DNA of 64,000 bases from an uncultured virus (IMG/VR IMGVR_UViG_3300028048_003121). Taxonomy: Duplodnaviria; Heunggongvirae; Uroviricota; Caudoviricetes. A model generated the notes under the pieces. The model did not search any database and had not been told where the DNA came from. It saw nothing but the letters and a program-made list of their open reading frames with translations. The position numbers were made by a program, and so were the translations under genes. The stretch lies in the IMG/VR virus record IMGVR_UViG_3300028048_003121. One strand, given 5' to 3'. Positions 1 to 31,773 of this stretch are shown in pieces (position 1 is the stretch's first letter; every line of letters begins with the position of its first letter).

Positions 1-3000
1 AGGCTTCATCATTTCATCGGCACGCTCCGGCGTAGCGGCTGCCAAGGCAGCACGGTATTGAAGGTCGGTGAACGCATCGGCCTTACCAGTAGCAGAAACC
101 TTCTGAATATCCTCAGAAGCAGCTACTTCTTGCTCCTCTCCAGAGTTATAGTTCATCTGGTTCGTCACACGTGCATCTACGACGGCACAAAGGAAGTCGG
201 CATAGATACCCAAACGTACCAATGCCTCCTGACGGTCTTCCTGATTATAGAAACGCTTACCGGCGATACTATCGAGCGCGTTCAGGAAGTCGCGCTCCTC
301 AGCAAGAACCTGCGTCTGATCCATGTCATCAAGGCGGTTAATGGTCGCATTAACCTGCTCACTCAAATCCTCATAAGGCACAGCGGTCCACTTTTCAATC
401 AGATGACTGACGGCATCCAGAGAAAGGTTGGTATGCCAGTCGATACCATAGTCATTCAAAGTCTTACGGGCCTCAGTAGCCTGAGTTTTCTCCTTACTAT
501 AACGGTCGGAATGGTAATCCTCCTTATTAGCAAGAATATAGAGTTGCTGACGGATGCCGTCAGGCAGAGAGGGCGAGTAGACCTCACCATTCATCTCAGC
601 CAAACGCTTACGGGCAGCGAAGATAACCTCGTTGTCCTGATGAATCATATAACCGTCAGTGTTCTCGGCAGCCTTGGCTTCCAGCCATTGCTTATCGTCA
701 ACACGGGACTTCTGCAAGTCCATCATCTCCTTGATCCATTCCTCTGCCTTCTGACGCTGGGAGAAAGTACCCTCTACATCAGCCGCACTGACCAGATGGT
801 TACCACACCAGGTACCACAATGAACGTAAGCACGTTCACGCCAGCTACCGGTATCGGCAGCCTCGCGCATCTCGGAGAGACTGACAAGACCCAATACCTC
901 ACGGTTGAAGGCGACCTTATGGTCACGGCCTTCCTTGTAAATCCTATAGACAGGCTCCTCCTGCTTGGGAAGAGACTTTACAGTCTCATCAAGGCTGGCC
1001 TGTATCTTCTTGTCAAGCTCCTCCATATCATGCTTCAGGGAAGCAAGCTCCTCCTCCTTGGGCCATGCCTTGCCTGCAATACGCTCGTACTCGCTGATAT
1101 CCTCGGAAATCTTCCTGTTACGCTCCTCATACTGAGCGATATAGGAAGGAATCTTGTCTAATGCCTGCACACCGTAGCGCACAGCTCCAAGACGGTTATC
1201 CTTGCTCATGGCAAGGTGACCATTATTGAACTCATACTGATAATGACCCTGAATATAGAAACGGTTGCCTGCAAAGACATCCTTTTTCTGGGTGTTGTCA
1301 TACATATAGATGCTGTCAACAATGAATGGGAAACCATAGACTTCACCAATCTGTCTGTCCTTGTTGCCGACAGTACGACCGGCATCCTGAAGCTTACTGC
1401 CCATACCCTCAATGTTATACTTTCCGTCAGGGGTGAACTCCGGCTCATTCATCATCACAAGACCTGGCAGGGCGATACCGTCCTCACCACGCTTGATGAC
1501 TGACTGGAACTTCTCATAGTCCTCAGTCATATTCTTGATGATGACCGTATTCTTCTGAACCTTCTCACGGGCATTCTCCAAACGCCACTCGGTATCACGA
1601 CGGGCCTGCATATAGCTCTTACGCTCCGACTCCAGACCCATAATCTTCTTTTCCAGCTTCGCCTTCTGCAGCAAGTCATCATTACCGGAAAGAATAGCCA
1701 CCATCTCGGCGAAGTTCATACCGTTCTCTTCATCAAAGGCACCCTCATCGATGACACGGGTACCAAGGGAGTTGGTCTTCAACTGCGTGATGAAGAGCTG
1801 TTTGTTACGAAGCAGGTTGAACTTATAGACATCCAGACTGCGCTCAACGGCATAGATAAGGACATCGACATTGTTACCGCCGAACTCCTTGGCAACCCAG
1901 TTGCCGGTACGACGGGCACGTCCGTTACGCTGCTCCAAGTCAGACGGACGCCAAGGAATGTCGATATGGTGGACGGCAACGGCACGCTTCTGGGCATTGA
2001 CACCCGTACCAAGGGTGGAGGTGCTGCCGAAGAGAACGCGGATCTTACCGTCGTTCATATCCTCAATCATCTGCTTACGCTGCTTCTCATTCTTCGCCTC
2101 CTGGATGAAACGGATCTCTGCAGCAGGAATACCATAGTCATTGACGAGCTTGTCCTTGATCTCCTGGAAAACATTCCACTCGCCAGGCTTATAGGTGGAA
2201 AGGTCGCTGAAGATAAACTGCGTACCTTTCTGCTCGTCATACTTCTTATAATAGTCGGCAACCATGCGGGCGCAATGGCTGGCCTTATTGTCGGGGTCAT
2301 CACTGAAACGCTCCTTGGAAACAAGGCGCATATCCAACGAGGCCTTACGGCTGGCATCGGTGGCAATGAGCATCTTACCCTTTTCCTCACTATCAGAGAG
2401 AGGAGCACGGAAAATAAGCTCACCGTCGCCAGTCTTGGCGAACTCTATCAGACGCTGGTTGAAATCCTGCTGATCCTTGGTGGGCTTGATGCTATGCAGG
2501 ATGACGTTCATATTGGGACGGTCGAGACCGACATCCTCACCAGTGCGGAAGTCGGTGATTTCATTATAGAACGTAGCAAGCTCAGGAACCTTAACGAAAT
2601 AGCGGAAACGCTCCTTAACGGCTACCTGATTGGTGACGTTGAACTCATAATCCGACGTCTTCTTGGCATAGACGGCAGCCCAGGCATCAAAAGAATGGAT
2701 GCCCTGACGAGCCATAGCCTCCGGACGAAGATACTTGAAGAGCAAGTATAGCTCAGTAAGGCTGTTGCTGATGGTCGTACCACTTAGGAACGTCGCGCCA
2801 AGGTCTTTACCCGTGCGGTTCTGGATGGTACGGATGGCATACAGCAAATTCAAAGCCTTCTGACTGCCAGCAGGACTACCCAAACCAGAGACACGCTGAT
2901 GACGCGTGGTGAACATCAAATTCTTGAACTGGTGGCTTTCATCGACAAAAATATGGTCGATGCCCATCGTTCCGAAATCCACCACGTCATCGGTACGCTG

Positions 3001-6000
3001 ACTCATGGTAAGCTGGATATTCTTCAGCTTAACCTCCAGGTTCTCCTTGCGTTTCTCCAGACCGGAGAGCATACGCTTGGAGATGCTATGTCCCTGCTGA
3101 CGCAAGACGTCCAGAGCTTCCTCGACATCACGAAGCTCGTCATCGAGAATCTGTTCCTGAATCTCCAAGGACTGGGGAATCTTACCAAACTGGTCATGCG
3201 ACATAATGACGCAGGCATAGTCGTTATTCTTGATTCTATTGAAGAACTGCACTCTGTTGGCAGGACTGAAATCCTTCTCAGAGGCATATAATATCTTATC
3301 ATCGGGAAAAGCGGCCTGATAGGTGGCTGCAATCTCTGAGACATTGGCCTTCAAAGCAATAATCATCGGTTTATTGGCCATACCCAGACGGTGCATCTCA
3401 TGGGCAGCCATACACATGATAAGGGTCTTACCAGTGCCTACCTCATGGTCGCAGATGCCACCGCCATTCTGTAAGAGCATCCAGACGCAGTCCTTCTGAG
3501 ACTTGTAGATATCCTTGACATTGAACTTGGGAGCGGCCAGAGCCTTCAAGTCAATGCCGGGGAATGTCTGATGGGTTCCGTCATATTGGGCTTTGACGAA
3601 ACAGTTGAACTTCCGGTTATACATAGTCTGAAGCTCGTCACGTTGCTCCTTGGGGAGATTGGTGAGATAATCCGTAAAACCGTCGCGGATTTCCTGAATC
3701 TTGCTGTTGGCAAACTGAATCTTCTCCATGTCAGGGCCTTTGACATCGTTACCGTCATGGTCATAACCGACGCACTTCTGGATGTCAGGTGTAGTGTCAT
3801 GGAAGGCATGCTGGAGCAATGACATACCGTCAAAGTCCTTATATTCACCATGGACGCAGAACTCCTCACGGATCTTGGGATTCCAACGGTTCTCGGCAGA
3901 GACGGAATACTCATCGATATGCTCCGCATAACTGATAGACATCTTGGTGCCGAAAACCTTAGACATGTAAGCCTCGTAATGCTCGGTGGGAATCCAGCGC
4001 TCACCGAACTGCAGACCAATCTCATCAAAGGGAATCTGCTGGGGAACGGCAGCCTCCAAGGCAGCCTTGGTCTCTTTCAGGGCTGCAAGCTCTTCCTGTG
4101 ACCAGTGCTCAGGATCATCCTCCTGGGCATCAATGGAAGCAGAGACAAACTCCAGCTTCTCATAGATATTACCTGAGAGTGCCTTGGCGGCAATCTCATA
4201 CTGGCCGTCAGGCATGAAATAGAGCTGACCCTTCAGGACGGCAAGCAGCTCATCACGGCCTTCACCCGTGATATCCTCCATGAATCCGAGGTCAACACGA
4301 CCATAACGGTTCAGGGACACGAAAAGAGCCTCTTCCGGCGTGTCCACATGCTCGATGTCGTAGGCGACAAACGAGACGGGACGCTCAAAGATGTCGCTCT
4401 TGACGAACTTCCCGTCAACGACATTCTCCACACACAGCATGTCACGCGCCATCGTGTCATAGAGCAAGACACGCTGGTTCCTACGCTCGTTGAGCGCACC
4501 ATACTTCATGAAGAAACCGTCATAGGCCTCGTTGAGCTTCTGACGCAGGTCGGCATGCTCGACCTTTTCCTCAGCCTCTATATTATATAACTCATTATAG
4601 AGATCGCGAACGGCGATATACTGACGCATGAGCGGATAGTCACGCTGAGAAAGCTCACTATCCTTGAAGGGATTGAAGACGGGCGTACCTGACTTGACCT
4701 GGCTCAGAATACCGAGCTGGTCGCCATCGGCAACGACGACACCGTCACGCCAGTGGGCTTTCATCTCACCGGCAAAGGCACGAGGCTCCAGACTCTCTTC
4801 CTGGGCCTGCTCTTCATCCCACTGTGCGAAAAGGTCAAGCTGGATGGGACCTGAGCCGACATGCTGCTGGCTCTTAGGCTGCTGCTTGACAGGATCTATC
4901 TTTGGCTTTGCCTGCTGGACCTTATATATATTCTTATTATATAGGGCGACATCCAGACGCTTGGCGAAATCCATTTCAAGGGTGTCTTGAAGCTCTTTGG
5001 CAAGCTTCTCGACATCACCGTCGAAAGGATATTCATAGGCCGGCTCACCATACATATTCTTACCGACCTTGACATCATCGGAAAGGATGTGACCCAGCTC
5101 ACCATAGTCATGGTAATTCTCCTTATCTGGAGTGAAAGCCCAGTTACAGGTGATACCGTTATCACCTTTCTCAGATTCACGGAACATCCTATCCAGATGA
5201 GAATCCTTTCCAACATACTTGCTGTCGCGCTTCTGGATAATAATCAGGTCAGAACCTGCCTCGGTGCCAGCCTCGCTGCTGAACATTCCGTCAGGCAGAC
5301 GGACGGCACTGATGATGTGACCGACCTTGGAGAGACGGTCACGGACAAAGCCGTTACGAGGACTGTCAAGAACACCCCTGCTGGTAATGAAAGCAACCAG
5401 GCCACCGTCATGAACGGTGTCAAGGGCTTTCAGGAAGAAATAGTTATGCAGGGTGTTGGCAGCCCACTTCTTATACCCATCATTACTGTTGGTATAATCG
5501 GGGTCGAAGACCTTGACATCCCCGAAGGGTATATTACTGGTAGTCAGGTCAAAAGTCCCCAAGACCTCCTGCGGAATGGTCTCGAAGCCATTGACAATAA
5601 CCTGGTCTTCGGGATGCAGTGCCTTCAGGATCTTGCCGGTTAGCAAGTCCTTCTCGAAGGCAGTGACCGCCATACCCGGCTGGTCAACCTTGAAAGCCTC
5701 GACGAATTTTCCGTTGCCGGAAGAGGGATCCAGAAACCTATTAACGGCAATGCCGCTACCAGACAAAGCCTTGCTGATAGCCTGCACAACAGCATCAGGA
5801 GTATAGAAAGCAGTCGTGACACTACGCTTCAGACTGTCAAAATAAGCCTGATACTCCTTATCGTCCTTACTGAACTCCTGCAAGACCTCATGCAGACGGA
5901 TGGTGTCATTGAGGTAAGGACGATCGCTGGCCTTCCAGACGCTGTCATCCTGAAGGCTGACACCATAGACGGGGTTCAGAATGAACTTCAGACCGCCGAA

Positions 6001-6126
6001 GCCACTATACTTGCGAAGGGCTGACAGCTCCTCGGCAGTGGCCTTGCGGTTGTCACGTTCCAACTGGAGAGCGATACGGATCGCCTCGATATTATCACTG
6101 AGCTTTTGATGCTTGTTATATGCCAT
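1..6126 (-). CDS. Large N6-adenine DNA methylase / SNF2-type helicase fusion (DarB-like), >2040 aa, 3' end beyond window
   Basis: Absent from the ORF track because it has no stop in the window. ATG at 6126 gives [17 protein letters not shown]...[13 protein letters not shown]. Motifs read by eye: [10 protein letters not shown] (SAM binding), SNIPFGD (catalytic), DHEVGTGKT (Walker A), [10 protein letters not shown] (DExH). Frame still open at base 1. Confidence 0.9.
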
Positions 6127-6191
6127 AATCAACTGCTATGCGTTTCTTTTCCCGACAAAGGAAATAGAAATATGGCACACCACCTAAAATC

Positions 6192-6256
6192 GGCAAAGTT
6201 TCCTCTTGATTTAACACATTTACGATTTTGAAAGTCTTAAATACCGAAAATCAAGA
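6192..6256 (-). promoter_or_regulatory. Conserved upstream motif, copy 1 (shared with tra operon promoter at 27271-27335)
   Basis: 30-nt identical core TTCCTCTTGATTTAACACATTTACGATTTT at 6200-6229 and 27279-27308; both copies lie ~70-80 nt upstream of a minus-strand operon start. Confidence 0.75.
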
Positions 6257-6329
6257 TTTTCAAGGTCTTAAATCAAGACGATATAAGATTACTGGAGATG
6301 ACCATAAAAATAAAAAATATCGAAAAATA

Positions 6330-6361
6330 TTTGGAGATACCAAAAATTTTTTGTACCTTTG
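6330..6361 (+). promoter_or_regulatory. Bacteroidetes sigma-A type promoter (-33 TTTG / -7 TAnnTTTG)
   Basis: TTTG at 6330-6333, 20-nt spacer, TACCTTTG at 6354-6361. Confidence 0.7.
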
Positions 6362-6505
6362 CAGCATAACAAACGAGTAGACGGGTAAAAAGTCGCAATA
6401 GCGACATAATGGGAGGCTCCTACTCGCTGTTGGTGCTTGGGCATGAGCATGGTAACTGGCTCACCTTTAAGGATAAAGCCCAGCCAACTCCTGAAGAGCA
6501 GGACG

Positions 6506-6546
6506 GAAAGACCACAGAGATCCTTCGGGGTTTCTGTGGTCTTTTT
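6506..6546 (+). terminator. Strong hairpin plus U-tract, just upstream of guide scaffold A
   Basis: AAAGACCACAGAGATCC-TTCG-GGGTTTCTGTGGTCTTTTT. Confidence 0.7.
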
Positions 6547-6552
6547 GCATAC

Positions 6553-6636
6553 GGGCCGGCTGTACGGCCTTAACGTGAGGGCATTGCCCACTCACGAATC
6601 AAGCGTTCATTAACATCGAGGCAAGCTTGATACAGC
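6553..6636 (+). ncRNA. Guide scaffold A (tracr-like RNA fused to a repeat 3' fragment)
   Basis: GGCC-GGCTGTAC-GGCC hairpin; CGTGAG...CTCACG hairpin; anti-repeat ATCAAGCGTTCATT; ends in AAGCTTGATACAGC. Homologous to three other loci in the window. Confidence 0.8.
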
Positions 6637-6830
6637 CGTCCATCATGTCTGAATAGACAGACAACGGGTGTTAGACACCCGAAAATGAAAGCTTGATACA
6701 GCTCAACCGCATGGATGCCGCCATCCTGAACAGGTGTTAGACACCCGAAAATGAAAGCTTGATACAGCTAAAGATGAGGTCTTTGGCACGATATATGGGT
6801 GTTAGACATCCGAAAATGAAAAAAACAGTG
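6623..6830 (+). CRISPR. Mini CRISPR array A: repeat GGTGTTAGACACCCGAAAATGAAAGCTTGATACAGC, 3 spacers
   Basis: Partial repeat 6623-6636; full identical 36-nt repeats 6667-6702 and 6733-6768; degenerate repeat from 6798. Spacers 6637-6666 (30 nt), 6703-6732 (30 nt), 6769-6797 (29 nt). Confidence 0.92.
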
Positions 6831-6921
6831 AAGCGTCGCGGCTCACTAAAATATATAAAGAATAATAATACCATTCTGGTCTACGAGAATCCGCGACATC
6901 TCGCCCAGGGTGGTATTTTAA

Positions 6922-7215
6922 ATGGAAATGATTATGAGAAAGTTATTGATTAGTCTCGTGATGGCGCTGGCAACAATATGTGCACAGGGCCAGGAGAAAA
7001 CAACGGTGACAATAAATGACACCTGTAAAGTTGAAGGTCAGACGTCTTCAAAGACGGTGAAAGTCACCAAGAAACAGAAGATGAAAAAACTGTCAAAGAA
7101 AGAACAGAGACAGCAGCTGATGAAAAGAAACAAGACGGCAAGCTATGTCGAAGCATCAGCAGAAGATAAGCATAAAGACAGCATAGCTGGTGTGACAAAC
7201 CTTAAACTTTATTAG
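6922..7215 (+). CDS. Small secreted basic protein
   Basis: Signal-peptide-like N-terminus MRKLLISLVMALATICAQG; followed by a terminator hairpin. Confidence 0.65.
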   Translation: MEMIMRKLLISLVMALATICAQGQEKTTVTINDTCKVEGQTSSKTVKVTKKQKMKKLSKKEQRQQLMKRNKTASYVEASAEDKHKDSIAGVTNLKLY

Positions 7216-7221
7216 ATAGAC

Positions 7222-7252
7222 AAAAAGAGGATGCCTGCAAGCACCCTCTTTT
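7222..7252. terminator. Bidirectional intrinsic terminator
   Basis: AAAAAGAGGATGC-CTGCAA-GCACCCTCTTTT between convergent genes. Confidence 0.65.
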
Positions 7253-7318
7253 AAAATTTCTGCATTAAAATCTACCACCTGCTATATCGCTTATATGTAG
7301 GTAGCACGGAATCAAACC

Positions 7319-7756
7319 TTACCGCCTCATAAACTCAGCCTCGTCGAAGCTGTCAAAGCGATCGAAACAACCGTCAATACGGAGGTCGTCGGACTTCTTG
7401 ATGATGTCGATACCATACAATTTAGTCTGTTGAGTCAAAGCCTGTCTCATACAGTCATCATCAAGTTCTATCTCCTTATAGATGTTAATATAAGTATTAA
7501 ACAATTGACGCCGAGCACCATTGCGTATAACAGTCTTACCGTTATAGGTGACGCCATTCTCTCCGCGACCATTATTATTATATGTCATGTAGATAGATGC
7601 CACCGTTTCGTAAGTGTTGGTATCATAGATCCAGATCATCGCAGTATTACTAACAGGGTCGTAACGAGCCTCTGACGCGTAATGACACGCCAAAACATTC
7701 AATGGTGTTGCAAACAAGCCGAACATCATCATCATCATAAATACAATCTTCTTCAT
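7319..7756 (-). CDS. Secreted hypothetical protein
   Basis: Signal peptide MKKIVFMMMMMFGLFATPLNVLA; 145 aa. Confidence 0.7.
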   Translation of the reverse strand: MKKIVFMMMMMFGLFATPLNVLACHYASEARYDPVSNTAMIWIYDTNTYETVASIYMTYNNNGRGENGVTYNGKTVIRNGARRQLFNTYINIYKEIELDDDCMRQALTQQTKLYGIDIIKKSDDLRIDGCFDRFDSFDEAEFMRR

Positions 7757-7825
7757 AATACAATCTCTTTAATTAAACCTAACAAAAACTAACACATCCT
7801 ATTTCGCGAAAATAGTTTCATAAAA

Positions 7826-9817
7826 CTACTTGATGCCACGGGAGAGCTGTTGCTGCTCCTGCTGCTCGACACTACGGTCGAAGTTCTGACGAACCTGAGC
7901 CTGCTGTTCATCATACTTCCTCAGAACGGCATTACACAGCACGTTGAGCGGAAGTTTACCCTGATAGTAGGCATCGGCACTCTGCTCATCGATATAGATG
8001 ACACAGGGCTTGTGGTCGATGGTGGCAACGAGGGCATTACCCTTCATAGCAGGCTGCTCGATACGCTCTGACAACAGCTCGTCGGCATGCTGCACATAGC
8101 GCTTAGGTCTCTGCTGGGTACTGACACCGGCATTATCCAGAATCTCATGACCAGCCTTATTCAGGATATTGGCACCGCCAAGACCAATCAACAGCATCTT
8201 CAAGAGCGGATTCTTCACAAACAATCCTGCGAAGATGGCACCGAAAGGCAAGAGATTATCCTTCAGGTGCAGGTTCTTGGACTGACCCGTCAACATGCCA
8301 ATAAGCATGTCGGGAAGCATGGCAAGGACGTAACCGAGGTTCTTTCCGATATCACTCATACCACCCAAGCCGAACTGGTTCATCAGCCCCGTCCAGCCTT
8401 GCATACCTGCCTGCTGATAGACAGGCCCTTGCATCATCTGTGGATTCTGCTGGGACTGGTATTGCTGCTGCTGGACATACTGCTGTTGCAAAGCGGTCTG
8501 CTGCTGATACTGCTCAGAGGACGACTGCTGGGGAACAGAAACCGTCTCAAACTGAGGCGTCTCGACTTTCTTCGCCTGCTGCTTCTGGAGCTTGTCAGCG
8601 GCACGGGCATAGTCGTATGCCCTCTGTACGACCTCGTCAAAGGTGAACTTCTGACCGTTGACGGTCTGCGACTTCATCTTGCTACGCTGCATCGTCAAGG
8701 CGATAGACAGGAAATGACTGCTGAGGTCTATACACTCCTTCTGGCTCTTCTGCAACATCCACCCCGGCACGTCAGAGACGGCAGAGGGCTTCAAACCGTA
8801 GTTCTTAGAGACTGTCAAGACATTCTGCATATGTATGGCAGCATCACCGGCAGCGGACTTGGCAAGCTCATCATAACGGGCCTTCTGCCACGTAGGGCTA
8901 TACAGCGGACGGTACTCAGGGATGGTCATCGGCTTCTTGAGGTAGTCATTGACCGCATGAACGGTTTCTGACTGCGCCACCTTGACCTTCTTACCTTTCG
9001 ACCGCATAGAGGCAAAAGCTTCCTCATCACCATAGAGTTCCTTACCCAGCATCTGATCGAAGGTGGTGTCATTCTCCAAGAGGGAGAGACCACCACGGGC
9101 AAGGACGTCAACGCCAAGCCACTTTCCTAACTTCCCCCAAGAGCCGTAACCACCGGTCACGGCAGTATCAGCGGCAAAGGTAGTGGCAAAGGCGGCAGCC
9201 TTCTCGGCAGCACTGGCATCATACATCTTCTCTGCGAGAGTCCTGATATGACTGTCATGCTGACCCTCCGGAAGAGACAATCCAGAAAGGAAGGCAGGGA
9301 ATGACTCGCCGAAGCCTTTCTTCAGGATATACTCCAAGGAGGACTTGGGAACCTGTGCCTTGGCAAGCTGCTCCAACTCCAACTGCATGAAGCGGTTAGA
9401 GACAAACTCCCTGGCAAGATCCTTGGAAGGACACTTAGCGGACAGCTCAGCATAACGCTGCTCTCCCATCTCCTTGACGGCAGCAAGACGCCAGGCGTCA
9501 ATCATCACGGCGAAGTCATGCTGGACATTTTTGTTCCTACCCAACTTACCGTCAACCATCTTCAGAAGGTCATCGGAGGTCTTGCTGTTCCACTCGCCCA
9601 CAAGATGGGCCTCCTGGGCAACCATGGAGGCATGCGTCATACCGGACATGCCAGGGGCGACAGGACGGTTATCCAGCATACGGACATATTCCTCAGACTG
9701 CTTCTTTCTGAGGAAGTCCATCTGACCCTTGACCACAGGGGCGATATTCTCCCTGTAGTACCTGTCAAAGACGTATTCCAAGTCCTGGAACTGCTGCTTA
9801 TTTGTCGGTTCTGCCAT
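7826..9817 (-). CDS. ICE tra-region hypothetical membrane protein
   Basis: 663 aa; Q-rich linker, hydrophobic segments, C-terminal ..SRGIK tail; last long gene of the tra operon. Confidence 0.8.
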   Translation of the reverse strand: MAEPTNKQQFQDLEYVFDRYYRENIAPVVKGQMDFLRKKQSEEYVRMLDNRPVAPGMSGMTHASMVAQEAHLVGEWNSKTSDDLLKMVDGKLGRNKNVQHDFAVMIDAWRLAAVKEMGEQRYAELSAKCPSKDLAREFVSNRFMQLELEQLAKAQVPKSSLEYILKKGFGESFPAFLSGLSLPEGQHDSHIRTLAEKMYDASAAEKAAAFATTFAADTAVTGGYGSWGKLGKWLGVDVLARGGLSLLENDTTFDQMLGKELYGDEEAFASMRSKGKKVKVAQSETVHAVNDYLKKPMTIPEYRPLYSPTWQKARYDELAKSAAGDAAIHMQNVLTVSKNYGLKPSAVSDVPGWMLQKSQKECIDLSSHFLSIALTMQRSKMKSQTVNGQKFTFDEVVQRAYDYARAADKLQKQQAKKVETPQFETVSVPQQSSSEQYQQQTALQQQYVQQQQYQSQQNPQMMQGPVYQQAGMQGWTGLMNQFGLGGMSDIGKNLGYVLAMLPDMLIGMLTGQSKNLHLKDNLLPFGAIFAGLFVKNPLLKMLLIGLGGANILNKAGHEILDNAGVSTQQRPKRYVQHADELLSERIEQPAMKGNALVATIDHKPCVIYIDEQSADAYYQGKLPLNVLCNAVLRKYDEQQAQVRQNFDRSVEQQEQQQLSRGIK

Positions 9818-9834
9818 AACGGATCATATATTGA

Positions 9835-10119
9835 TTAAATACCTAACAACTGTCTGCGCGTCTGGTCGATTGCATTGTGATAGACACTCATCTGCTTGGG
9901 GAAGAAACGGGTGAGCCAGTCATCCTTGCTAATCTGGTTGTGGATAAAAGAGATAGCCATGCGGCGATTGATCTCGATAGCAGGCTCTCCCTTATCACGG
10001 CCATTGAACCAGGCCTTCGTCCACCAACGCTCTCCGGCATTGTCGGCAAAGACGGAGGCGACACGCTTCAAATCATAGCTCTGCACATCAATCTGCAGGG
10101 TGTCCAGCGGGTCTATCAA
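9835..10119 (-). CDS. Hypothetical protein, possibly a frameshift extension of the M23 peptidase
   Basis: 94 aa, TTG start overlapping the upstream stop; frame is open back to the A9 run. Confidence 0.7.
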   Translation of the reverse strand: MIDPLDTLQIDVQSYDLKRVASVFADNAGERWWTKAWFNGRDKGEPAIEINRRMAISFIHNQISKDDWLTRFFPKQMSVYHNAIDQTRRQLLGI

Positions 10120-10967
10120 CCCGTCTGAAACCGCGCCGAGAGTACTTTTTTTTTATCATCGTCCCATGTTGACACAAAGATGTTGTGCCGGGAGCCGAGG
10201 AAGTTCAGGAAGTCACCAATCAAGAGACTCTGAGCCTTACCGGCCATCAGGGAGCTACGAGCACTCAGACCCAACGGATTGGAGAGTGAAGGGATGCTCT
10301 CGAAGAAATAATTCTTCTCAGCAGCCTGCATGAAGATATTCCTCAGCTGGGCTTCTACAAGGTCGGAAGTGTGATAGCTGCCAGTACGCAGCTCATTCAT
10401 ATACTCTGGGAGCCAGCGGAGCATCAGCTGAAGGATCTCATTCTGGTCGGCATCATAATCGGTCTTGATAGGCACGTTCAAATCAACAAACTGAGCCTCA
10501 TTGTTGATTCCCAGGACAGAGAGCTGCATAATGTTGCTATAGACCATCTTCAAAAAGTCAGTAGGGTCAATGAGGTGACCATCAAACCTGACCTCGAAAT
10601 GCAGAATACCGCCACTCTTGGCAATCTGCTGACCAGCCTTGACATGAGTGCCGTAATTGCAGTACGCCTCACTGACATGGCCGTACTTCACGTCATACTT
10701 GCCATAGCGCGTAATGATGAAATTCTCATGAATGGCATCATTGCCGACACCAACCACAGTACCCGTGGCGATAGCAAAAAGAGGCAGATTACCGGTAGCG
10801 AGGTCAATACCGGTATGATTGAACTTCTCTCGCGTGGAAGGGTGAAGCTGCTCACCGAAACCAAGGAGAATTTCCACATCATGCTCCTCGTCACCAGGAA
10901 ACGGCATGAAGAAACCGCTGGCAGACTCCAGAAGCATGTCTTTCTTGTCAAAAGTCTTATTTTCCAT
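10116..10967 (-). CDS. M23 family peptidase (peptidoglycan hydrolase)
   Basis: HTGIDL (HxxxD), YGHVS and LHFEVR motifs. Confidence 0.85.
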   Translation of the reverse strand: MENKTFDKKDMLLESASGFFMPFPGDEEHDVEILLGFGEQLHPSTREKFNHTGIDLATGNLPLFAIATGTVVGVGNDAIHENFIITRYGKYDVKYGHVSEAYCNYGTHVKAGQQIAKSGGILHFEVRFDGHLIDPTDFLKMVYSNIMQLSVLGINNEAQFVDLNVPIKTDYDADQNEILQLMLRWLPEYMNELRTGSYHTSDLVEAQLRNIFMQAAEKNYFFESIPSLSNPLGLSARSSLMAGKAQSLLIGDFLNFLGSRHNIFVSTWDDDKKKVLSARFQTG

Positions 10968-10969
10968 AA

Positions 10970-11737
10970 TTACATTCGTCTTGATCTGAATACTGCATTA
11001 TCATCATCCTGCTGCTGTGTCGGAGGCATCATAGCAGGCTGGTACTGCTGCTGAGGATAATAGCCCTGCTGGGGGACATAAGCCATCTGCGGCTGCTGAC
11101 GCATGGACTTCAAAGCCATGTTACCGGTCAGCAGAGAGGCTATCTTACCCAACCAGCCGAAAGGCCCCATCATCATATAGGCAGAGGCAATGAGACCGGC
11201 AAGGTTGGTCATCGTGACATTACTGCCCGTCATATTGCCTAACATCTGGGGAATACTGTTGAAGGGAGCGGTAAACTGGGAGATACCGCCGTTCATCATC
11301 GTCTGCTGGGGATAGTAGCCCGTATTGGGGTCTACATACTGCGGCTGCTGGCCGTTGCCCGTCAATCTCTGGACACCGCCCTGCACCATGTCAACACCGG
11401 CACCAAGAGCACCGACAGCGGCATCCTTGACCTGCTTGGCACCATCGACGGCACCCTGGGCAAGCTCTCCGGCCTTCTGGTCAATGACATCGGCAGTACC
11501 CTCACCCAAAGAGGTGTCGGCAAGCTGACGGTAAAGACCCTTGATGGCTCCCTTCTCACGCTCCTCCTTATCCAGGAGGATATTCTTGGCAGCACCAGTA
11601 CCGATGGTAATAAGTCCCTTACCAGTGACAGCCGTCGTAGCATAGGCAGCACCACCCAAGGCCAAGACCTTACCAGTCTTGGAACCCAAAACGTAGGAAA
11701 GACCCTTTCCTGCTAACTTGAAAATACCTGCTCCCAT
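10970..11737 (-). CDS. Hypothetical Gly/Gln-rich membrane protein
   Basis: 255-aa ORF tightly packed in the tra operon. Confidence 0.75.
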   Translation of the reverse strand: MGAGIFKLAGKGLSYVLGSKTGKVLALGGAAYATTAVTGKGLITIGTGAAKNILLDKEEREKGAIKGLYRQLADTSLGEGTADVIDQKAGELAQGAVDGAKQVKDAAVGALGAGVDMVQGGVQRLTGNGQQPQYVDPNTGYYPQQTMMNGGISQFTAPFNSIPQMLGNMTGSNVTMTNLAGLIASAYMMMGPFGWLGKIASLLTGNMALKSMRQQPQMAYVPQQGYYPQQQYQPAMMPPTQQQDDDNAVFRSRRM

Positions 11738-11761
11738 AATCTATTCCTTTCTTTTTATACG

Positions 11762-12496
11762 TTAGTTACTCTTATACGGATTATATACATACACCTTACG
11801 GGCATGATGAACCTTCTCCTTTCCTGTCTCATGGGCTGTACCGCTGTTCAGGGAGAACAGCCAGGCTTGCAAGGCCTGATTGTCCTTGACCTCGGTACTG
11901 GTCCAGTACCAACAGTCATCAGAGGCACGGTCGGTAGACAGTGGCACGGCAGCATAACGCGGATCCTGCTCATTCAACCGCTCAATGATACTGTTGACCG
12001 TACCACGCTGGGCATAGAGCATCTTCATCTCCGCAACGGAAGGAATGAAGTCGCTCATCCCATACTCATGGGCAGAATAGGCGGCATTGGCCAGCGGACT
12101 GCCATGGAAGGTCTTGTTGTCAAAGCTGTTCCACAAGGCAATGGTATTAGTACGGCCATCCAAGGCAGTGATATCACAGCTGGTGCCCTGAACCATCCCC
12201 AACAGGGAGTCGCAGAACTGCAAAGGCGGCAGCTCGTTGAGCATCACCGCCAGGTAATACTCGTTATCTATCATCTCAGAGAAGATGATACCGACGGCAG
12301 TACTGTCACCCCTGTTGAAATACTCATCCTTATTGACGACATTTCCATCCGCAAGAAGGATATGCCCCGGATGAATACCCAGGTCTACAGGCTCATGCTC
12401 GTCACAGGACACCAAGGAGACTGAAAGCAGCAGAGCTGCAACAACCATCACACACATATCGCCGAAAAGGCGCTTGAAATTCTGATAATATCTCAT
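11762..12496 (-). CDS. Lipoprotein, DUF1566/Lcl-like C-terminus
   Basis: Lipobox LVSC; FIPSVAEM...YWTSTE...AWLF motif. Confidence 0.7.
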   Translation of the reverse strand: MRYYQNFKRLFGDMCVMVVAALLLSVSLVSCDEHEPVDLGIHPGHILLADGNVVNKDEYFNRGDSTAVGIIFSEMIDNEYYLAVMLNELPPLQFCDSLLGMVQGTSCDITALDGRTNTIALWNSFDNKTFHGSPLANAAYSAHEYGMSDFIPSVAEMKMLYAQRGTVNSIIERLNEQDPRYAAVPLSTDRASDDCWYWTSTEVKDNQALQAWLFSLNSGTAHETGKEKVHHARKVYVYNPYKSN

Positions 12497-12535
12497 AATA
12501 GACTTCAGTTTTATAAACTTAATGACTTAACTTAT

Positions 12536-12952
12536 TTACATACGGCGGTCATGACCCCAGATAATGCCTCTTCCTCCGTCGGGAAGCTCAATGACATAGG
12601 GGTCACGGACACCTATAATGTCAGTACCGATATGTCGGGGAGAGTCATCATCCGATGACGAACCGCCACCGGAAGACAGCTTGGCAGTAGTGGCATCCAG
12701 ACCAAAGAAACGGGGTAGAGCCGTACTCGCCGTGACAAGGAAGACACACGAGAAAGCAAGACGCATCACCTTCATGCGAACCTCCGGCTCGCCGTCCATC
12801 ATGTCTGAATAGACAGACAACGCGCCGACAATACAGATGACGGCTGCTATCGCATAGCAGACGGCACGGACATAGAAAAGGTAGCTGGCGACGCCTGTAG
12901 CGGCGAGGCCCAGCGGATCAGCGGTTAAAATCAAGTGTGTCATAAGCATCAA
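12536..12952 (-). CDS. DUF4134/TraE-like pilin paralogue (target of spacer A1)
   Basis: CYAIAAVICIVGALSVY...FL..ALPRFFG aligns with the TraE at 25892-26305. Confidence 0.75.
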   Translation of the reverse strand: MMLMTHLILTADPLGLAATGVASYLFYVRAVCYAIAAVICIVGALSVYSDMMDGEPEVRMKVMRLAFSCVFLVTASTALPRFFGLDATTAKLSSGGGSSSDDDSPRHIGTDIIGVRDPYVIELPDGGRGIIWGHDRRM

Positions 12953-12975
12953 GTTTTAGAGTTAATAATAATGAA

Positions 12976-13527
12976 CTATAACGGCATCTTCATTCCAAGG
13001 GCAACGCCCGTGCGGAACAAGTCCTCACCACGGATGATTACATCCGTCCTTACCTGGAAGAAAAACTCCCAGCCGCCACGCAGCGCATAGCTGTGCTCAT
13101 AGCCCACTGTACCGCCACCGATGATATTGGAGGTATTGGAGCCGCAAAGGGCACCGATACGGAAATTGCCGTGACCGTTACGGTGACGGACAATACAGGG
13201 CTTGTAGGCAATACCAAGGAGCCAGGTACGGTAGTTGTTCCAGAAGCTGTCCTTAGTGATATGACCGGCTTCAGGATCCTCGGCATACTTAATGTAGTAA
13301 TTGCCGAAATACTCCCAGGCATTATGGTACTTCGTCTCGTGCTCGTAACCTAACGTGACATCGAAACCACGCTCATAGAGGGCACCGACAGAGAGCTGCA
13401 GGTGATTAACATTGGAACCGGACTGGGCTGACGCGGAAAGAGGACAGCCGCAGACAAACACTGCCAGGAAAAGCAGGCTGATCATAGCGTCGCCGCCCAA
13501 ACGTCGGAAAATAGATAACTGTCTCAT
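12976..13527 (-). CDS. traO: Conjugal transfer protein TraO-like (outer-membrane beta barrel)
   Basis: Signal peptide, alternating beta strands, position directly after traN. Confidence 0.65.
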   Translation of the reverse strand: MRQLSIFRRLGGDAMISLLFLAVFVCGCPLSASAQSGSNVNHLQLSVGALYERGFDVTLGYEHETKYHNAWEYFGNYYIKYAEDPEAGHITKDSFWNNYRTWLLGIAYKPCIVRHRNGHGNFRIGALCGSNTSNIIGGGTVGYEHSYALRGGWEFFFQVRTDVIIRGEDLFRTGVALGMKMPL

Positions 13528-13553
13528 AGCAATACTGATTAAATAATGAAAAA

Positions 13554-14405
13554 CTACTCTTCCTTCAGCAGCAGGGTGCTGAACGAGTCAGCAGCGAGGA
13601 TGTCCTCATAGTCAAGCTGCATATAGATGGTACGGCCACTGATCTGCTTCTCGCTGAGTTCCAAGGTCAACACCTTGTCATTGGGGAATGTCATCTTCTT
13701 CAGGACGATGACATTACGGTAGCCATGCTGGAAATGCTGACTCTTGTCAAGCACCAGCACGGGCTTCAGCTCGATACTCTGCACATTGGTGGCCTTGGAC
13801 TGCTTCTTGTCATCGAGCTTCACCCTCAGCTCGTCAATGTCGAAACGCAGGTTCGTCCTGTTCTCCACGCTGAAATCGATGAAAAAATACTCACCGACGG
13901 TATAGACGTTGTTCAAACGCATGGTCATACGGTGCTTGTTCACCTTTATATTGCGGTACTTGGCAGGAGAGTTCCAGATACGACGGGCAAATCGCACCAT
14001 CTCCTCCGTACTCATACTGACGGCAGGGTTACGGAAGGCATTACGCTCGGCAATGTCAACCTCCTTGTCAGAGACTGCCTCTTCAAGACGGGTCGTATAG
14101 ACCAGGGCATACTGGGAACGGAAACGCTCAGTGACGACAGTGACAATGGCAATGACCTCACCGTCCAGGTGACCGCCCTCCTTGGGCTTCAGACGGATGA
14201 CATTGTCAATAGGCTTGTCACCAGCCACCATATCGGTACTGATATCCACCAAACGAATAGGCTCCGGAGCCGTGATGACAGTGGTGACGTTCTCGTTAAC
14301 CGTCAACTGCTCCATCTCAAAATAGGTCTGCTGGGCGAAAGCGCTTCCAGCTGCCAAGGCGCAAACTACAACAGCGCACAGTCTGTGATAAAATCTGATG
14401 TTCAT
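13554..14405 (-). CDS. traN: Conjugative transposon protein TraN (DUF4138)
   Basis: TTVITAPEPIRLVDIS; KMTFPNDKVLTLELSEKQISGR; synteny. Confidence 0.88.
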   Translation of the reverse strand: MNIRFYHRLCAVVVCALAAGSAFAQQTYFEMEQLTVNENVTTVITAPEPIRLVDISTDMVAGDKPIDNVIRLKPKEGGHLDGEVIAIVTVVTERFRSQYALVYTTRLEEAVSDKEVDIAERNAFRNPAVSMSTEEMVRFARRIWNSPAKYRNIKVNKHRMTMRLNNVYTVGEYFFIDFSVENRTNLRFDIDELRVKLDDKKQSKATNVQSIELKPVLVLDKSQHFQHGYRNVIVLKKMTFPNDKVLTLELSEKQISGRTIYMQLDYEDILAADSFSTLLLKEE

Positions 14406-14460
14406 ATCGTTATATTTTAATGTTTCTTATAATACGTATTACTTTAAATACTTATATCAA

Positions 14461-15882
14461 CTACTGGCCAAGAGCCTGACCGTAGGAGCGAAGCGACGGA
14501 CGGGGCACGGTGCTGCCGCCTGAAGTGCGCATATTACGCAAAGCTGGAGGCGTACCATACTGCATGTTGTTATTGTCAGCACCGGCACGGGACTGTGTGC
14601 TGCCCTTCTGCCTGCCACCGCCCTTCTTCTGAGCGGCATTAACCAAATAGACCTGGGTGCCGTACTTGATCTTGGCCTTGTTCTTACGGATATTCTTGCT
14701 CACGGCATTGGCGACACGCTGGTAGCCGTTCTGCATGGCATTGGAGGCCCATGACACAAAGCTGGTAGAGGTAGACATACCATCCACGACATTCATGTTA
14801 CTCTGCAAAGCCTGGCCTCCCACATCCTTGGCAGCCTCGCGGAAACGGCTCTCAGGAACGTAAAGACCCTCCAGACCGTCAAGGTCATAGACAGACAAAG
14901 AGACCTTCTCCAGATGGTCATCGACCATCACGCTCTCCACCTTACCCTTGACACGCTGGGAGCCGAAGCCGGACATGACACAATAGAGGTACGAACCTTT
15001 CTTCAGGACGACATCGTTGATCTCAATGTCATCCAACAGGCGCAAGCGGACACGGCTGCCATCGACAGCTTTGATGTCCTCATCGACAATAGCCTTGATC
15101 ATGCTGGACTCCTTCTCATTGACACTGAGGGTGTTGAAATAGTTGCTCTCCTCACGGACTTTCTTCACCACAGAGCTGGCTTCCTCGTCCTCGTCAAGAG
15201 CCGTGACAGCAGTCTTCGTCTTGACGGAGAGCTTGGCATTGATACCCTCACGGACATCGTTGAGACTGTCCAAACGGGCAACCTCGCCCTCAGCCTGCTT
15301 CTGGGCATCGGCAACCTTACCGGCAGCATCCTTGCGGATATTGCCAAGAGCCTGCTCGACATCGTCAAGATGATTGTTACGACGCAACTCATCAATCTTG
15401 GCACGCTCATCATCGGAGATGTCCTTGACAAACTCGGCACCGGACTGGTCACGAGCAGTGCCGGCCTGTTCCTGGAGCTTACGGCGCATATCGTTATAAC
15501 GGTCTCGCTCGGCCTGCGAGCTGGCATTCTTGGCAAGCTCCTCCAAGTCCTTCTCAGTATAGTTACTGCTGAAGTCCTCCTTCTTCTTGATACTGTCAAG
15601 GTCATTATCAATATTCTCCATGGCCGACAGGTCACGGATGTTACCGAAGGTCTTCTCGACATTCTCACGCTTGCCACCAAGACCCTCCTTGACATTGGCA
15701 GAGGGCAGCTCGGCATTCAGGTACTCGGTGGTCTGCAACTCGGTGTTGACCTCTTCCGCAATCTCGGTATGGAAGATATCTATAAAGAGATACCCCAAAC
15801 CCAGCAGAGGGAAGTAGAGGATAGCCGGAAGGATGTACTTCGGCTGCTTCAAATTAAGTTTATTCGGCATGTTCATAATCAT
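14461..15882 (-). CDS. traM: Conjugative transposon protein TraM (VirB10-like)
   Basis: N-terminal TM; GSRVRLRLLDD and VYDLDGLEGLYVP motifs. Confidence 0.9.
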   Translation of the reverse strand: MIMNMPNKLNLKQPKYILPAILYFPLLGLGYLFIDIFHTEIAEEVNTELQTTEYLNAELPSANVKEGLGGKRENVEKTFGNIRDLSAMENIDNDLDSIKKKEDFSSNYTEKDLEELAKNASSQAERDRYNDMRRKLQEQAGTARDQSGAEFVKDISDDERAKIDELRRNNHLDDVEQALGNIRKDAAGKVADAQKQAEGEVARLDSLNDVREGINAKLSVKTKTAVTALDEDEEASSVVKKVREESNYFNTLSVNEKESSMIKAIVDEDIKAVDGSRVRLRLLDDIEINDVVLKKGSYLYCVMSGFGSQRVKGKVESVMVDDHLEKVSLSVYDLDGLEGLYVPESRFREAAKDVGGQALQSNMNVVDGMSTSTSFVSWASNAMQNGYQRVANAVSKNIRKNKAKIKYGTQVYLVNAAQKKGGGRQKGSTQSRAGADNNNMQYGTPPALRNMRTSGGSTVPRPSLRSYGQALGQ

Positions 15883-16225
15883 GTGGTTTTAGGGTTTTCA
15901 CTTTCTGACCTTTCTTGTGGATGGCACCATCGACACGCTCCACAGCGACAGCCTTACGGGAAGGGCTGTTGGCAACGCGGACGATACGAACCAGGTTCAA
16001 GATAAACAACAGAATAACAAAGCCAAAGGCAAGACCAAGGAACAGCTTCTTATTGGCCGCTCCCCAAGACTGGAGATGGCCAGCAAGCCACTTGATGCCA
16101 ACGACCTCGGCAAACTTCTCACCGGCGGCGACCTGCTGCTCGTAGGTCTCACGATACTTAGGATCGTTCTTGTCGGGCATCTCAATACGCTTGAATAAAT
16201 TCTTCCAACCCATAACTGATATCAT
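15860..16225 (-). CDS. TraL-like single-TM protein
   Basis: Lies between traK and traM; one TM segment. Confidence 0.6.
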   Translation of the reverse strand: MISVMGWKNLFKRIEMPDKNDPKYRETYEQQVAAGEKFAEVVGIKWLAGHLQSWGAANKKLFLGLAFGFVILLFILNLVRIVRVANSPSRKAVAVERVDGAIHKKGQKVKTLKPHDYEHAE

Positions 16226-16843
16226 TTAAAATTCATTCTTCTTACGCTGTTCCAAATCCTTGTTGAGAAGGGTACGCCAGTTGGTGATCAACAGCCCGTG
16301 AGGATTGTTTTCGGTACGGGGCACACGCTTCAACTGACCGGCAGTGACCAACTGACGCATGAGGATGTTCGTGCGACGCTCGATCCTCTGCCTGCCATAA
16401 TAGGTAAAGGTCATATTCTCCTTATCGAAATTGATGGAGTCACAAAAGATGGAGAAGACGGCACTGGTACCCATGATGTTCTGGTAGAAGCCCTTCTCCT
16501 TCAAAGCATTATACTGGGCCAAGCCGGTCTCATCGACCAGGTACATGGCCTTGTCCATCGTATATTTGATATACTTGTCATCAGGTGCCAACGTGAAGAA
16601 CAGATGATGAAAGGCCTCGACATGGCTCTTGGCCTCGACTTCCAGCGTCTCGTCCATCGTACTGCGCTGCACGAGGACGGGAACGGTACCGTCCAACACA
16701 TACACCTTCTTATGGGCGTCATCAACCATACCCTTGGCCATGACGAAGACACCCAGACAGATAACGACACAACTGCCAATGACTGCCAATGTGACAATCA
16801 TCACCAGCTTGATCTTGTTTTCCAAATTCTTGATAACTGACAT
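16226..16843 (-). CDS. traK: Conjugative transposon protein TraK (VirB8-like)
   Basis: HVEAFHHLFFTLAPD; RTENNPHGLLI. Confidence 0.92.
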   Translation of the reverse strand: MSVIKNLENKIKLVMIVTLAVIGSCVVICLGVFVMAKGMVDDAHKKVYVLDGTVPVLVQRSTMDETLEVEAKSHVEAFHHLFFTLAPDDKYIKYTMDKAMYLVDETGLAQYNALKEKGFYQNIMGTSAVFSIFCDSINFDKENMTFTYYGRQRIERRTNILMRQLVTAGQLKRVPRTENNPHGLLITNWRTLLNKDLEQRKKNEF

Positions 16844-16877
16844 AACGTAAACTGATTTATCGTGAATAATACTGTTA

Positions 16878-18113: not shown

Positions 18114-18125
18114 TTTAATGTTTTC

Positions 18126-18935: not shown

Positions 18936-18937
18936 AA

Positions 18938-22580: not shown

Positions 22581-22622
22581 GGGTATATTAGTATTTTCGT
22601 ATTACTATATTTCTTTAAATAT

Positions 22623-25573: not shown

Positions 25574-25873
25574 TTATAATATATTGCGCGAATGCGCAAA
25601 GATAAAGATTCCTTTGTCAACGGCCTTGCTATGCAGGCCCTTGCGCTGCTTGACGAAAATCATGACACCGCCGACACCAAGGGCAGCGGTGAGAATACCA
25701 AGACCGACCAGGAAACCAGCAACAAGGTAACCGATGATGAAACCGCAGACAGCACCGCCAGCGGTAGCTGCAGCCCAGTAGATATACCTGCCCTGCAAGC
25801 CCATCATCTCCAAAGGTCTCTGAAGACCCTTGAAGACGGGGAAATCCTGATAGTCGGTCTTGGCATCCATCAA
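25574..25873 (-). CDS. traF: TraF / DUF4133 (VirB3-like)
   Basis: VFKGLQRPLEMMGLQGRYI motif; two TMs. Confidence 0.85.
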   Translation of the reverse strand: MMDAKTDYQDFPVFKGLQRPLEMMGLQGRYIYWAAATAGGAVCGFIIGYLVAGFLVGLGILTAALGVGGVMIFVKQRKGLHSKAVDKGIFIFAHSRNIL

Positions 25874-27202: not shown

Positions 27203-27270
27203 AATTTTCTTGCGTTATTTTGAAATTTCTGACGCAAAGAAAACACCTATTTAATGAAAGGGAAAATATT

Positions 27271-31534: not shown

Positions 31535-31549
31535 CAGGGTGTCATTATC

Positions 31550-31750: not shown

Positions 31751-31773
31751 AACAAGGTAAGATGACTCCTACC

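Follow-up and report, generated by a model that had tools for sequence, protein, structure and literature searches.

A spacer of a predicted nuclease-dead Cas12f system perfectly matches a transfer gene of the putatively conjugative element that carries it

The stretch analysed here, 64,000 nt of uncultured virus DNA (IMG/VR record IMGVR_UViG_3300028048_003121; the whole of it is called the window), encodes a nuclease-dead relative (dCas12f) of Cas12f, a CRISPR effector, on what appears to be a conjugative, plasmid-like element. Three guide units lie on the window, A (6354-6833, +), B (about 31527-31790, +) and C (48880-48634, -), each made up of a conserved scaffold and, after it, an array of 36-nt repeats with spacers of 29-30 nt (3, 2 and 2 spacers in A, B and C, respectively). 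The first spacer of unit A, A1, is identical to part of a gene in the element's own transfer (tra) region, and this self-match is the subject of the present analysis. The coordinates of the features are collected in Table 1.

The 30-mer at 6637-6666 (+) recurs at 12793-12822 (+) without a mismatch (30/30), these being its only two copies in the whole window, and none of 100 dinucleotide-preserving shuffles contained two matches (mean 0.00). Identity extends two bases further 5', where 6635-6636, at which the repeat ends, and 12791-12792 both read GC, giving 32/32; the flanks of the second copy are ...GGCTCGC (5') and CGCCG... (3'). This copy lies inside the open reading frame (ORF) 12536-12952 (-), which has the sole DUF4134 match among the 69 window ORFs (≥80 aa) scanned with Pfam, and the guide strand is antisense to the gene. 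A1 itself sits directly 3' of scaffold A, after the half repeat AAGCTTGATACAGC. The initial annotation of this locus, made from the sequence alone, had reported the exact match and its flanks, a spacer fused directly to scaffold A, and a guide antisense to the tra mRNA that would pair with the coding strand; the sequence search and shuffles bear these statements out. Its description of the target as a pilin paralogue does not agree with a single DUF4134 match. Among the seven window spacers only A1 has a second match in the window, the other six reaching 18-21 of 29-30 positions, and among 401 genomes of the genus A1 is matched in one alone (G001). Three elements carry the target and its 5' flank in identical form: the window, contig C5 of G001 (41883-41912) and L024 (3908-3937), a 143,967-bp metagenome contig that represents a sibling element.

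In units A and B the terminal half repeat of the scaffold is joined straight to the first spacer, forming a natural single-guide head; in unit C a full repeat comes between scaffold and first spacer. An alignment of 12 scaffold sequences from the window, metagenome contigs and two genomes supports a fold into two hairpins, with compensatory changes in 6 of the 14 predicted pairs, and the single-sequence fold of scaffold A has a z score of -3.73. The hairpin-1 loop (GCTGT) can pair with the repeat end (ACAGC) beside the guide, and the two covary, becoming GTTGT and ACAAC jointly in three L022/L027 loci (one lineage). Such a long-range pair would allow any repeat-spacer unit to dock on the scaffold. 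No Rfam family was found in the window at the gathering threshold, nor in 6250-6900 at E≤1. The sequence TAnnTTTG, which we take to be a Bacteroidetes-type -7 box and a candidate promoter element of units A and B, occurs upstream of unit A (Table 1) and of unit B (31527-31534), a placement of little weight given that the motif shows no enrichment (29 occurrences in the window vs. 33.6 expected); the same motif scan of the window found none near the A1 target. Unit B closes with a terminator-like hairpin. A leader of ~190 nt (6366-6552), which ends in a hairpin and T run, separates the unit-A box from scaffold A and has no counterpart in unit B; it could be an attenuator gating array A.

Table 1. 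Positions of the guide units, the effector, the self-match and the transfer genes in the window.
Feature	Position	Strand	Basis
-7 box TACCTTTG upstream of unit A	6354-6361	+	motif scan
GC-rich hairpin then T run, terminator-like	6508-6546	+	read from sequence
Scaffold A: hairpin 1, hairpin 2, third stem ending in half repeat AAGCTTGATACAGC	6553-6636	+	
Spacer A1, self-matching guide	6637-6666	+	sequence and RNA-library contigs
Remainder of array A: repeat 6667-6702, A2 6703-6732, repeat 6733-6768, A3 6769-6797, degenerate last repeat 6798-6833	6667-6833	+	
tra gene row: TraG P-loop, DUF5045, TraM, DUF4138, DUF4134, M23 peptidase, others	7826-25562	-	Pfam
DUF4134 (TraE-like) type IV secretion system gene; protospacer at about codons 44-54	12536-12952	-	Pfam, E 3.1e-20
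A1 protospacer (12793-12822) plus GC equal to repeat end; side of the target-adjacent motif 12792, distal end 12822	12791-12822	+	
Unit B: scaffold 31550-31633, B1 31634-31663, repeat 31664-31699, B2 31700-31729, partial repeat	31550-31753	+	
ORF130 (P0124), second cassette gene	46796-47188	-	
dCas12f, 428 aa (P0001), directly behind unit C	47338-48624	-	structure-sequence search
Unit C: scaffold 48880-48793, repeats 48792-48757 and 48727-48692, C1 48756-48728, C2 48691-48662, partial last repeat	48634-48880	-	

Array A is represented in a metatranscriptome from another study that is kept as contigs, so that depth is one figure per contig, with neither strand nor local level. Contigs covering 6568-6666, 6637-6696, 6674-6762 and 6733-6769 have depths of 494, 782, 452 and 950, respectively, against 38 for the adjoining 5,080-nt contig (6740-11819); those with scaffold A and A1 are covered about 13-25 times as deeply as that neighbour. 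The first two span the scaffold-A1 and A1-repeat junctions with zero differences. The scaffold-A1-repeat sequence is thus present in the RNA library and is covered far deeper than neighbouring unique sequence. The contig at 6568 opens with 11 adapter letters, which indicates that many fragments end at 6568; the RNA may truly begin there, or reverse transcription may have halted within hairpin 1. The 99 nt from 6568 to the end of A1 fall within the reported length of dCas12f guides (85-105 nt). Contig ends at 6637, 6666 and 12793 were considered as RNA ends and rejected, since there the shared 32-mer breaks the k=31 assembly graph. Over 11834-13600 the RNA-library contigs have depths of 6.6-11 vs. 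38 for 6740-11819, the opposite of a drop behind the A1 site, and nothing is concluded from these values because each contig has one depth and the 6740-11819 contig holds array-adjacent sequence. Bins without cover, at 6100-6350 in this library (X2) and over the array in run X17, were left out of account as well. Covariation, the loop/repeat-end pair and the RNA-library contigs together identify a cognate guide RNA, in which a structured scaffold precedes the guide at the 3' end.

The top match of P0001 among solved structures is 9n9c, ‘Nuclease-deactivated Cas12f’ (E 1.4e-62, residues 4-415), followed by the Cas12f entries 9nzo and 9nzr (E 4e-45) and then by TnpB/Cas12f entries. In alignment with 9nzo the aspartate of vDLGIN is replaced by tyrosine (aYLGINHP) and the glutamate of iqmE by valine, and P0001 ends near position 417 of the 506-aa protein, about 85 residues early. 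P0001 has no match in Pfam, including none to TNB or OrfB; full-length homologs in the same genus carry Cas12f1-like TNB and OrfB domains. The dead effector proposed in the initial annotation is therefore borne out by the structure match, the loss of the RuvC-I and RuvC-II acidic residues and the missing C-terminal part, and these alignments leave P0001 without the active RuvC nuclease of type V-F systems. The argument that a dead effector makes a perfect self-match tolerable holds as well. The family comprises 930 proteins at E≤1e-10, of which the best 120 are all 365-461 aa long, and a 25-member alignment keeps YAYLG and LVNQ, lacks the acidic residues and has a mean column identity of 60%. 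Judged by its sequences, the family is a stable dead lineage under constraint.

The effector gene lies in a 2.1-kb cassette (46790-48936) with scaffold C, array C and ORF130; units A and B are orphan guide units. ORF130 encodes a coiled-coil-like protein of 130 aa; a homolog (53%) sits directly behind two arrays of contig L027, which also holds a 61% dCas12f. ORF130 has no match in PDB or Atlas, and neither it nor P0002, the ORF upstream of unit C, has an informative match. P0002 bears no resemblance to sigma factors, and G001:C5, which is without the cassette, still has it at 99% identity. No Sigma70 domain was found by Pfam in the 69 window ORFs or in 38 ORFs around the dCas12f homologs of genomes G147 and G428. 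With no linked sigma factor, the system is not the published sigmaE activation system, in which, according to the accessible part of its description, the C-terminal domain of a linked sigmaE completes the truncated RuvC of dCas12f (Hoffmann et al., PMC13472631; 10.1101/2025.06.10.658880). Adaptation genes were also sought, and there is no Cas1, Cas2 or Cas4 Pfam match among the 69 window ORFs. The full-length Cas12f loci of the genus have a similar array format, and the 17 ORFs scanned there include no cas1 or cas2, so no adaptation donor was found.

Relatives of the effector occur in phages. The homologs in G147 and G428 sit among ERF, RusA, DnaB, S24-repressor, integrase and YopX genes, i.e., in a prophage setting, and members of the clade are present on at least 30 viral contigs, with arrays parsed beside most of them. 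In G147, a 320-aa protein with an HTH_17 domain and an RNA polymerase alpha C-terminal domain is encoded 0.8 kb upstream of the phage dCas12f (L064:12038-13000), a curious neighbour in a system whose relative recruits RNA polymerase. In G428, the last repeat (L065:11040-11075) runs straight into the ribosome-binding region and start codon of the phage's own dCas12f gene, with the consequence that the ‘last guide’ would be the 5' end of that gene.

The tra genes of the window are Bacteroidetes-type and read from high to low coordinates, with a -7-type box (25597-25604, -) just upstream of the first gene. The window also encodes DnaN, a RecD2-like helicase, Toprim and Lin1244_N proteins (replication-type) and methylases. 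G001:C5 (166,918 bp) is 95-97% identical to most of the window, and its two ends abut in the window at 55944 and 55946. The related element is probably a circular replicon of about 167 kb, and the gene content of the window suggests a conjugative, plasmid-like element. Sequencing runs containing the stretch come from metagenomes of bovine or sheep gut and of rumen type. G001:C5 lacks the 1.5-kb unit-A segment, window positions 6290-7820 being replaced by a short spacer with a hairpin, and it lacks the 2.1-kb dCas12f cassette; it keeps unit B. No P0001 homolog was found in G001 (genome 93% complete).

Further repeats and one long ORF were noted on the element. A 71-nt intergenic element occurs at 6186-6256 and 27265-27335 (86% identity between the copies), with at least five more copies on G001:C5, and may serve the element as a common regulatory or promoter module. 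At 40459-41088, between and inside the two Lin1244_N genes, repeats of family D1 with a 21-nt period (two clusters with five copies in all) look iteron-like, and a 107-nt direct repeat (D3; 27719-27825 and 58464-58570, 95% identical) has its copies 30.7 kb apart. An open-ended ORF (1-6132, -; >2,044 aa) with helicase C, ResIII and SNF2-related matches stops just upstream of unit A.

The spacers turn over rapidly behind conserved scaffolds. In L024, scaffold A is unchanged and followed by two other spacers in place of those of the window, and a contig from a DNA run (X3) tracks the window to 6636 and then continues with 316 nt unlike it. B1 is the same in 3/3 B arrays seen (window, L001 and L026) and B2 is different in 3/3; the B spacers of L001 are those of G001:C5, and L001 may be the same DNA. 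Among the phages, arrays differ by one scaffold-proximal spacer (L103/L106 vs. L100; L097 vs. L098), which looks like polarised acquisition. Repeat and spacer lengths, together with differing spacers behind identical scaffolds, are those of a type V-F array with spacer turnover. Co-variation of spacer and target in related elements, proposed in the initial annotation as a check on A1, fails: the target is invariant in 3/3 elements, array A of L024 has other spacers, and G001:C5 lacks both array A and the effector. The A1 target would thus be a fixed feature of the element family and the A1 spacer particular to the window lineage. The companion suggestion, that A1 inhibits related integrative and conjugative elements, agrees with the identical target in the two sibling elements.

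Targets of the other guides were collected from the window spacers and their relatives, with the viral loci contributing 70 spacers, 61 of them unique, that were compared with the DNA of the window and of the genomes and contigs compared. The eight targets so obtained (3 antisense, 5 sense) include six in mobile-element DNA and two perfect self-matches. B1 matches contig C76 of G001 at 30/30 positions, inside a 753-aa Mob_Pre gene, antisense and behind the flank ...GTTG. C76 (L037; 4,261 bp), which may be a small mobilisable plasmid, holds this gene and one 345-aa ORF not assigned to any family, and it co-occurs with the big element in G001, where dCas12f was not found. Spacer 1 of L024 matches C5:106481-106509 (24/29) in a 503-aa Mob_Pre/relaxase gene, also antisense. 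The single parsed spacer of the G428 prophage matches (29/30, sense) a site that begins 34 nt into a DUF6291 gene, on a small integrated element of another contig with integrase and HTH_17 neighbours. Between phages, a spacer of L087 matches L086 (24/25 aligned bases), and spacer 1 of L100 matches L114 (29/29, sense, flank ...ATTA) behind a TACATTTG box, 12 nt before an ATG. The second self-match is that of phage L099, whose spacer 1 matches its own contig at 16874-16903 (30/30, sense, flank ...CTGC), 5.3 kb away; this match, too, extends to 32 nt through a GC in common with the repeat end, and the sibling phages L096 and L098 have the site without having that spacer. Carriage by a conjugative element or a phage, with spacers to genes of other mobile elements, was therefore found for the system.

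Several searches gave no usable target. A3, B2, C1 and C2 have none in the window, G001:C5, the loci compared or G001 at the BLAST thresholds used; A3 also has none in the 401 genus genomes or the PLSDB plasmids (one chance match in PLSDB), and C1 and C2 none in the 401 genomes or in phages. Matches of A2 at 23-25/30 in 9 genomes were rejected as being at chance level for 401 genomes. The viral-locus arrays compared with phages gave only matches at E about 0.08. An exact look-up of three phage spacers in viral contigs returned eight stretches, seven on array-holding contigs (by contig name) and one true protospacer, that of L114.

The flanks and orientations of these targets bear on how A1 could act. 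The last two bases of the A1 flank (...TCGC) are those of the repeat end. The perfect non-self targets (n=2) have T-rich, NTTR-like flanks (GTTG, ATTA), and the perfect self-matches (n=2) have ...GC; this contrast is taken as a lead and not as a result. No motif is common to all eight flanks, and a 5'-G as the target-adjacent motif (TAM), as in Fta, fits one of the eight at -1 in register (B1), the G of the L087 target lying two bases 5' of the protospacer. In Cas12f/TnpB relatives the TAM is 5' of the protospacer on the non-target strand, which for A1 is the + strand. Since the tra genes read from high to low coordinates and the TAM side is at 12792, RNA polymerase meets the TAM-distal end of the A1 site (12822) first. 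For the dead repressor TldR, which also uses a 5' TAM, the accessible text reports an efficient block of elongation only with the TAM-proximal end facing the polymerase (10.1101/2023.11.30.569447). By this rule, A1 is in the weak orientation.

The weak orientation, the repeat-like flank and the lack of conservation of A1 lead us to read the self-match as a tolerated passenger. We rate at about even the chance that A1 is a tolerated, recent self or sibling spacer of a rival-silencing dCas12f system and not an evolved autoregulatory circuit. The dCas12f-guide complex would bind double-stranded DNA by base pairing, without cutting, and would silence when bound at promoters or gene starts with the TAM side towards the polymerase, as in type IV, V-M and TldR systems. 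Its selected job would be conflict with other mobile elements, the candidate targets being MobV relaxase genes, a DUF6291 replication-organiser-like gene and a promoter-proximal site. A1 would have been acquired, probably recently, from a type IV secretion system (T4SS) gene common to the element family, and would persist because the dead effector causes no autoimmunity. With TAM-distal-first geometry and a repeat-like, non-T-rich flank, A1 would slow the element's own transfer only weakly, if at all.

A number of observations weigh against the passenger reading. A2 matches a chromosomal, mscS-like gene of G205 at its 3' end (28/30, sense), unlike a rival-silencing guide, and 4/7 window spacers have no match in all DNA searched. 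All three targets in transfer or mobilisation genes are antisense, which may reflect a rule. The T-rich flanks come from two perfect non-self targets whose effectors are only about 42% identical to each other, and the flanks of imperfect targets are TTGA, TTCA, CCCT and, two bases upstream of the protospacer, TTTG. A1 occupies the scaffold-fused, very deeply covered position, which is odd for a useless passenger. The two independent self-matches are both GC-flanked, and GC may therefore be an acquisition or targeting motif, with both sites true targets. Finally, no adaptation genes were found among the 69 window ORFs.

The strongest competitor is a roadblock in the manner of CRISPR interference, proposed in the initial annotation as a means of tuning the element's own transfer: dCas12f-A1 bound at 12793-12822 would lower DUF4134 and the downstream tra genes, throttling transfer of the element and its siblings. 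The perfect 30-nt match in the sole DUF4134 gene, the scaffold-fused and deeply covered guide, an effector that is dead yet conserved, and the identical site in two siblings all agree with it. So does phage L099, which also keeps a perfect self-match with a GC flank and may point to a true GC-type motif, and the accessible part of a type IV-A3 preprint considers that a plasmid might benefit from repressing the pilus (10.1101/2023.06.23.546257). Against it stand the weak orientation for 5'-TAM dead effectors, a flank equal to the repeat end that the effector must ignore at its own array, and the absence of A1 from L024 despite the same scaffold; moreover, a weapon that strikes self and sibling equally offers no clear advantage. 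Orientation, the TCGC flank and the failed co-variation thus weaken the original proposal, of which the perfect match and the dead effector stand, and we regard the roadblock as possible though doubtful. A broader form, in which own-DNA guides at GC-flanked sites (seen in two unrelated elements, that of the window and phage L099) would be heritable, re-programmable brakes on the carriers' own genes, in the window the T4SS gene row and with it the transfer of the element and its siblings, is a speculative extension that we think rather unlikely. If true, conjugation would be controlled by a natural, self-programmed CRISPR-interference circuit, and a Cas12f relative would for the first time show signs of a rule for acquisition or targeting that is linked to GC.

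Two other mechanisms would exploit the antisense placement of A1. Abundant A1 RNA could act independently of protein, pairing with the tra mRNA over 30 perfect nucleotides and causing cleavage or a translation block. The guide is antisense to the mRNA and deeply covered in the RNA library, the other two transfer and mobilisation targets are antisense too, and the accessible part of a paper on huge phages raises an RNA-interference-like role for phage spacer-repeat RNAs (PMC7162821). This is nonetheless improbable: 5/8 of the targets collected are sense, scaffold and effector are conserved together, and Cas12f relatives bind DNA. Alternatively, the guide could direct transcription, as the closest solved relative, a sigmaE-dependent dCas12f, does. 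In that system, as far as the accessible text describes it, transcription begins 45-48 bp downstream of the 5'-G TAM without promoter motifs (PMC13472631); an RNA starting about 46 bp downstream of the A1 TAM, near 12838 (+), would be antisense to, and interfere with, the upstream tra genes, and starts at all three antisense targets would oppose the target genes. With sigma domains absent from the ORFs scanned in the window and around the homologs, and with activity tied in the accessible part of that report to a sigmaE with a special C-terminal domain, this too is improbable, and a shade more so. In the sigmaE type, targets precede genes and transcription starts some 46 bp downstream of the TAM, whereas A1, B1 and L024 spacer 1 are intragenic and antisense, and at the phage targets such a start would fall in or past the gene start. 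That the match is due to chance or to misassembly, the latter raised in the initial annotation as a possible artefact, is scarcely credible given the shuffles, the independent RNA-run contigs that bridge scaffold, A1 and repeat, and the presence of the target in two other assemblies, which rule out the artefact.

The interest of the self-match would lie in the kind of system that holds A1. In the accessible part of PMC13472631, dCas12f has so far been shown to activate genes with a sigma factor, and a sigma-free, array-linked cluster is merely mentioned. The window places a sigma-free dCas12f on a conjugative element, with mini-arrays dispersed over the element and fast spacer turnover. Alongside type IV and Cas12m, mobile elements would then have a third, independent protein with which to fight each other by RNA guidance and without cutting, and the perfect self-matches are a natural test of whether self and rival are sorted by flank, by orientation or not at all. 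A literature search in one paper collection turned up no account of conjugative elements carrying dCas12f, of its targets in relaxase or T4SS genes, or of its guides matching their own carrier, though the supplements and figures of PMC13472631 may show related loci.

Among known systems, dCas12f-sigmaE, so far as its accessible description goes, shares with the window the protein family, the truncated RuvC, a scaffold and 3' guide in one RNA and a Bacteroidetes host (PMC13472631). The window system differs in having no linked rpoE and in being carried on mobile elements. Its guides are arrays of 36-nt repeats and 30-nt spacers in contrast to fixed guides of 14-16 nt, and its targets lie in or at the start of mobile-element genes in contrast to sites upstream of susCD operons. 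The same report, in one sentence and the legend of Extended Data Fig. 1a,b, describes an rpoE-free dCas12f cluster beside CRISPR arrays, with a covarying scaffold upstream, for which repression is proposed (PMC13472631). Like that cluster, the window has a dead Cas12f adjoining arrays and a covarying scaffold 5' of the array, and the window effector fits a dCas12f of the rpoE-free, array-linked kind as far as sequence comparison can tell. The cluster's example, in what is accessible of the report, is directed at a chromosomal RND efflux cassette, in its promoter region, whereas the window system targets relaxase, T4SS and replication genes; the latter also differs from that example in its conjugative carrier (phages in relatives), its three dispersed units and its perfect self-matches.

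Dead effectors with other histories offer partial parallels. TldR, as the accessible text presents it, likewise has a dead RuvC and a 5' TAM, is carried by some prophages and acts by RNA-guided repression (10.1101/2023.11.30.569447); it uses one fixed guide and stems from TnpB, whereas the window has arrays with turnover and a CRISPR-Cas12f origin. In the prophage copy of fliC associated with TldR, changes in the TAM and seed preclude self-targeting, according to the same text, a precedent for flank-based discrimination of self from non-self (10.1101/2023.11.30.569447). The phage ‘dCas14’ reported in 2020 is, like the window effector, a Cas14/Cas12f on a mobile element that lacks a catalytic residue and was read as a repressor (PMC7162821). 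Its spacer matches the host glycyl-tRNA synthetase gene, and the accessible part of that paper describes no self-match and no conjugation-gene targets.

The nearest functional parallels are the type IV and type V-M systems of plasmids, which, in the accessible parts of their descriptions, silence rival plasmids without cutting and have spacers rich in conjugation genes (PMC7038947, 10.1101/2023.06.23.546257, PMC11656645). With type IV-A3 and V-M (Cas12m), as these sources portray them, the window system shares a conjugative carrier, the lack of nuclease activity and of an adaptation module, and spacers to other mobile DNA. Type IV-A3 systems acquire spacers in trans, according to the accessible text of the preprint (10.1101/2023.06.23.546257), and block on both strands, which that literature, so far as accessible, attributes to DinG. 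Their effectors are a Csf complex with DinG, or Cas12m, unlike the miniature, dimeric-type Cas12f relative with a single-guide head found here. By this comparison, the window system would be a functional analogue of type IV and V-M systems and not a member of either.

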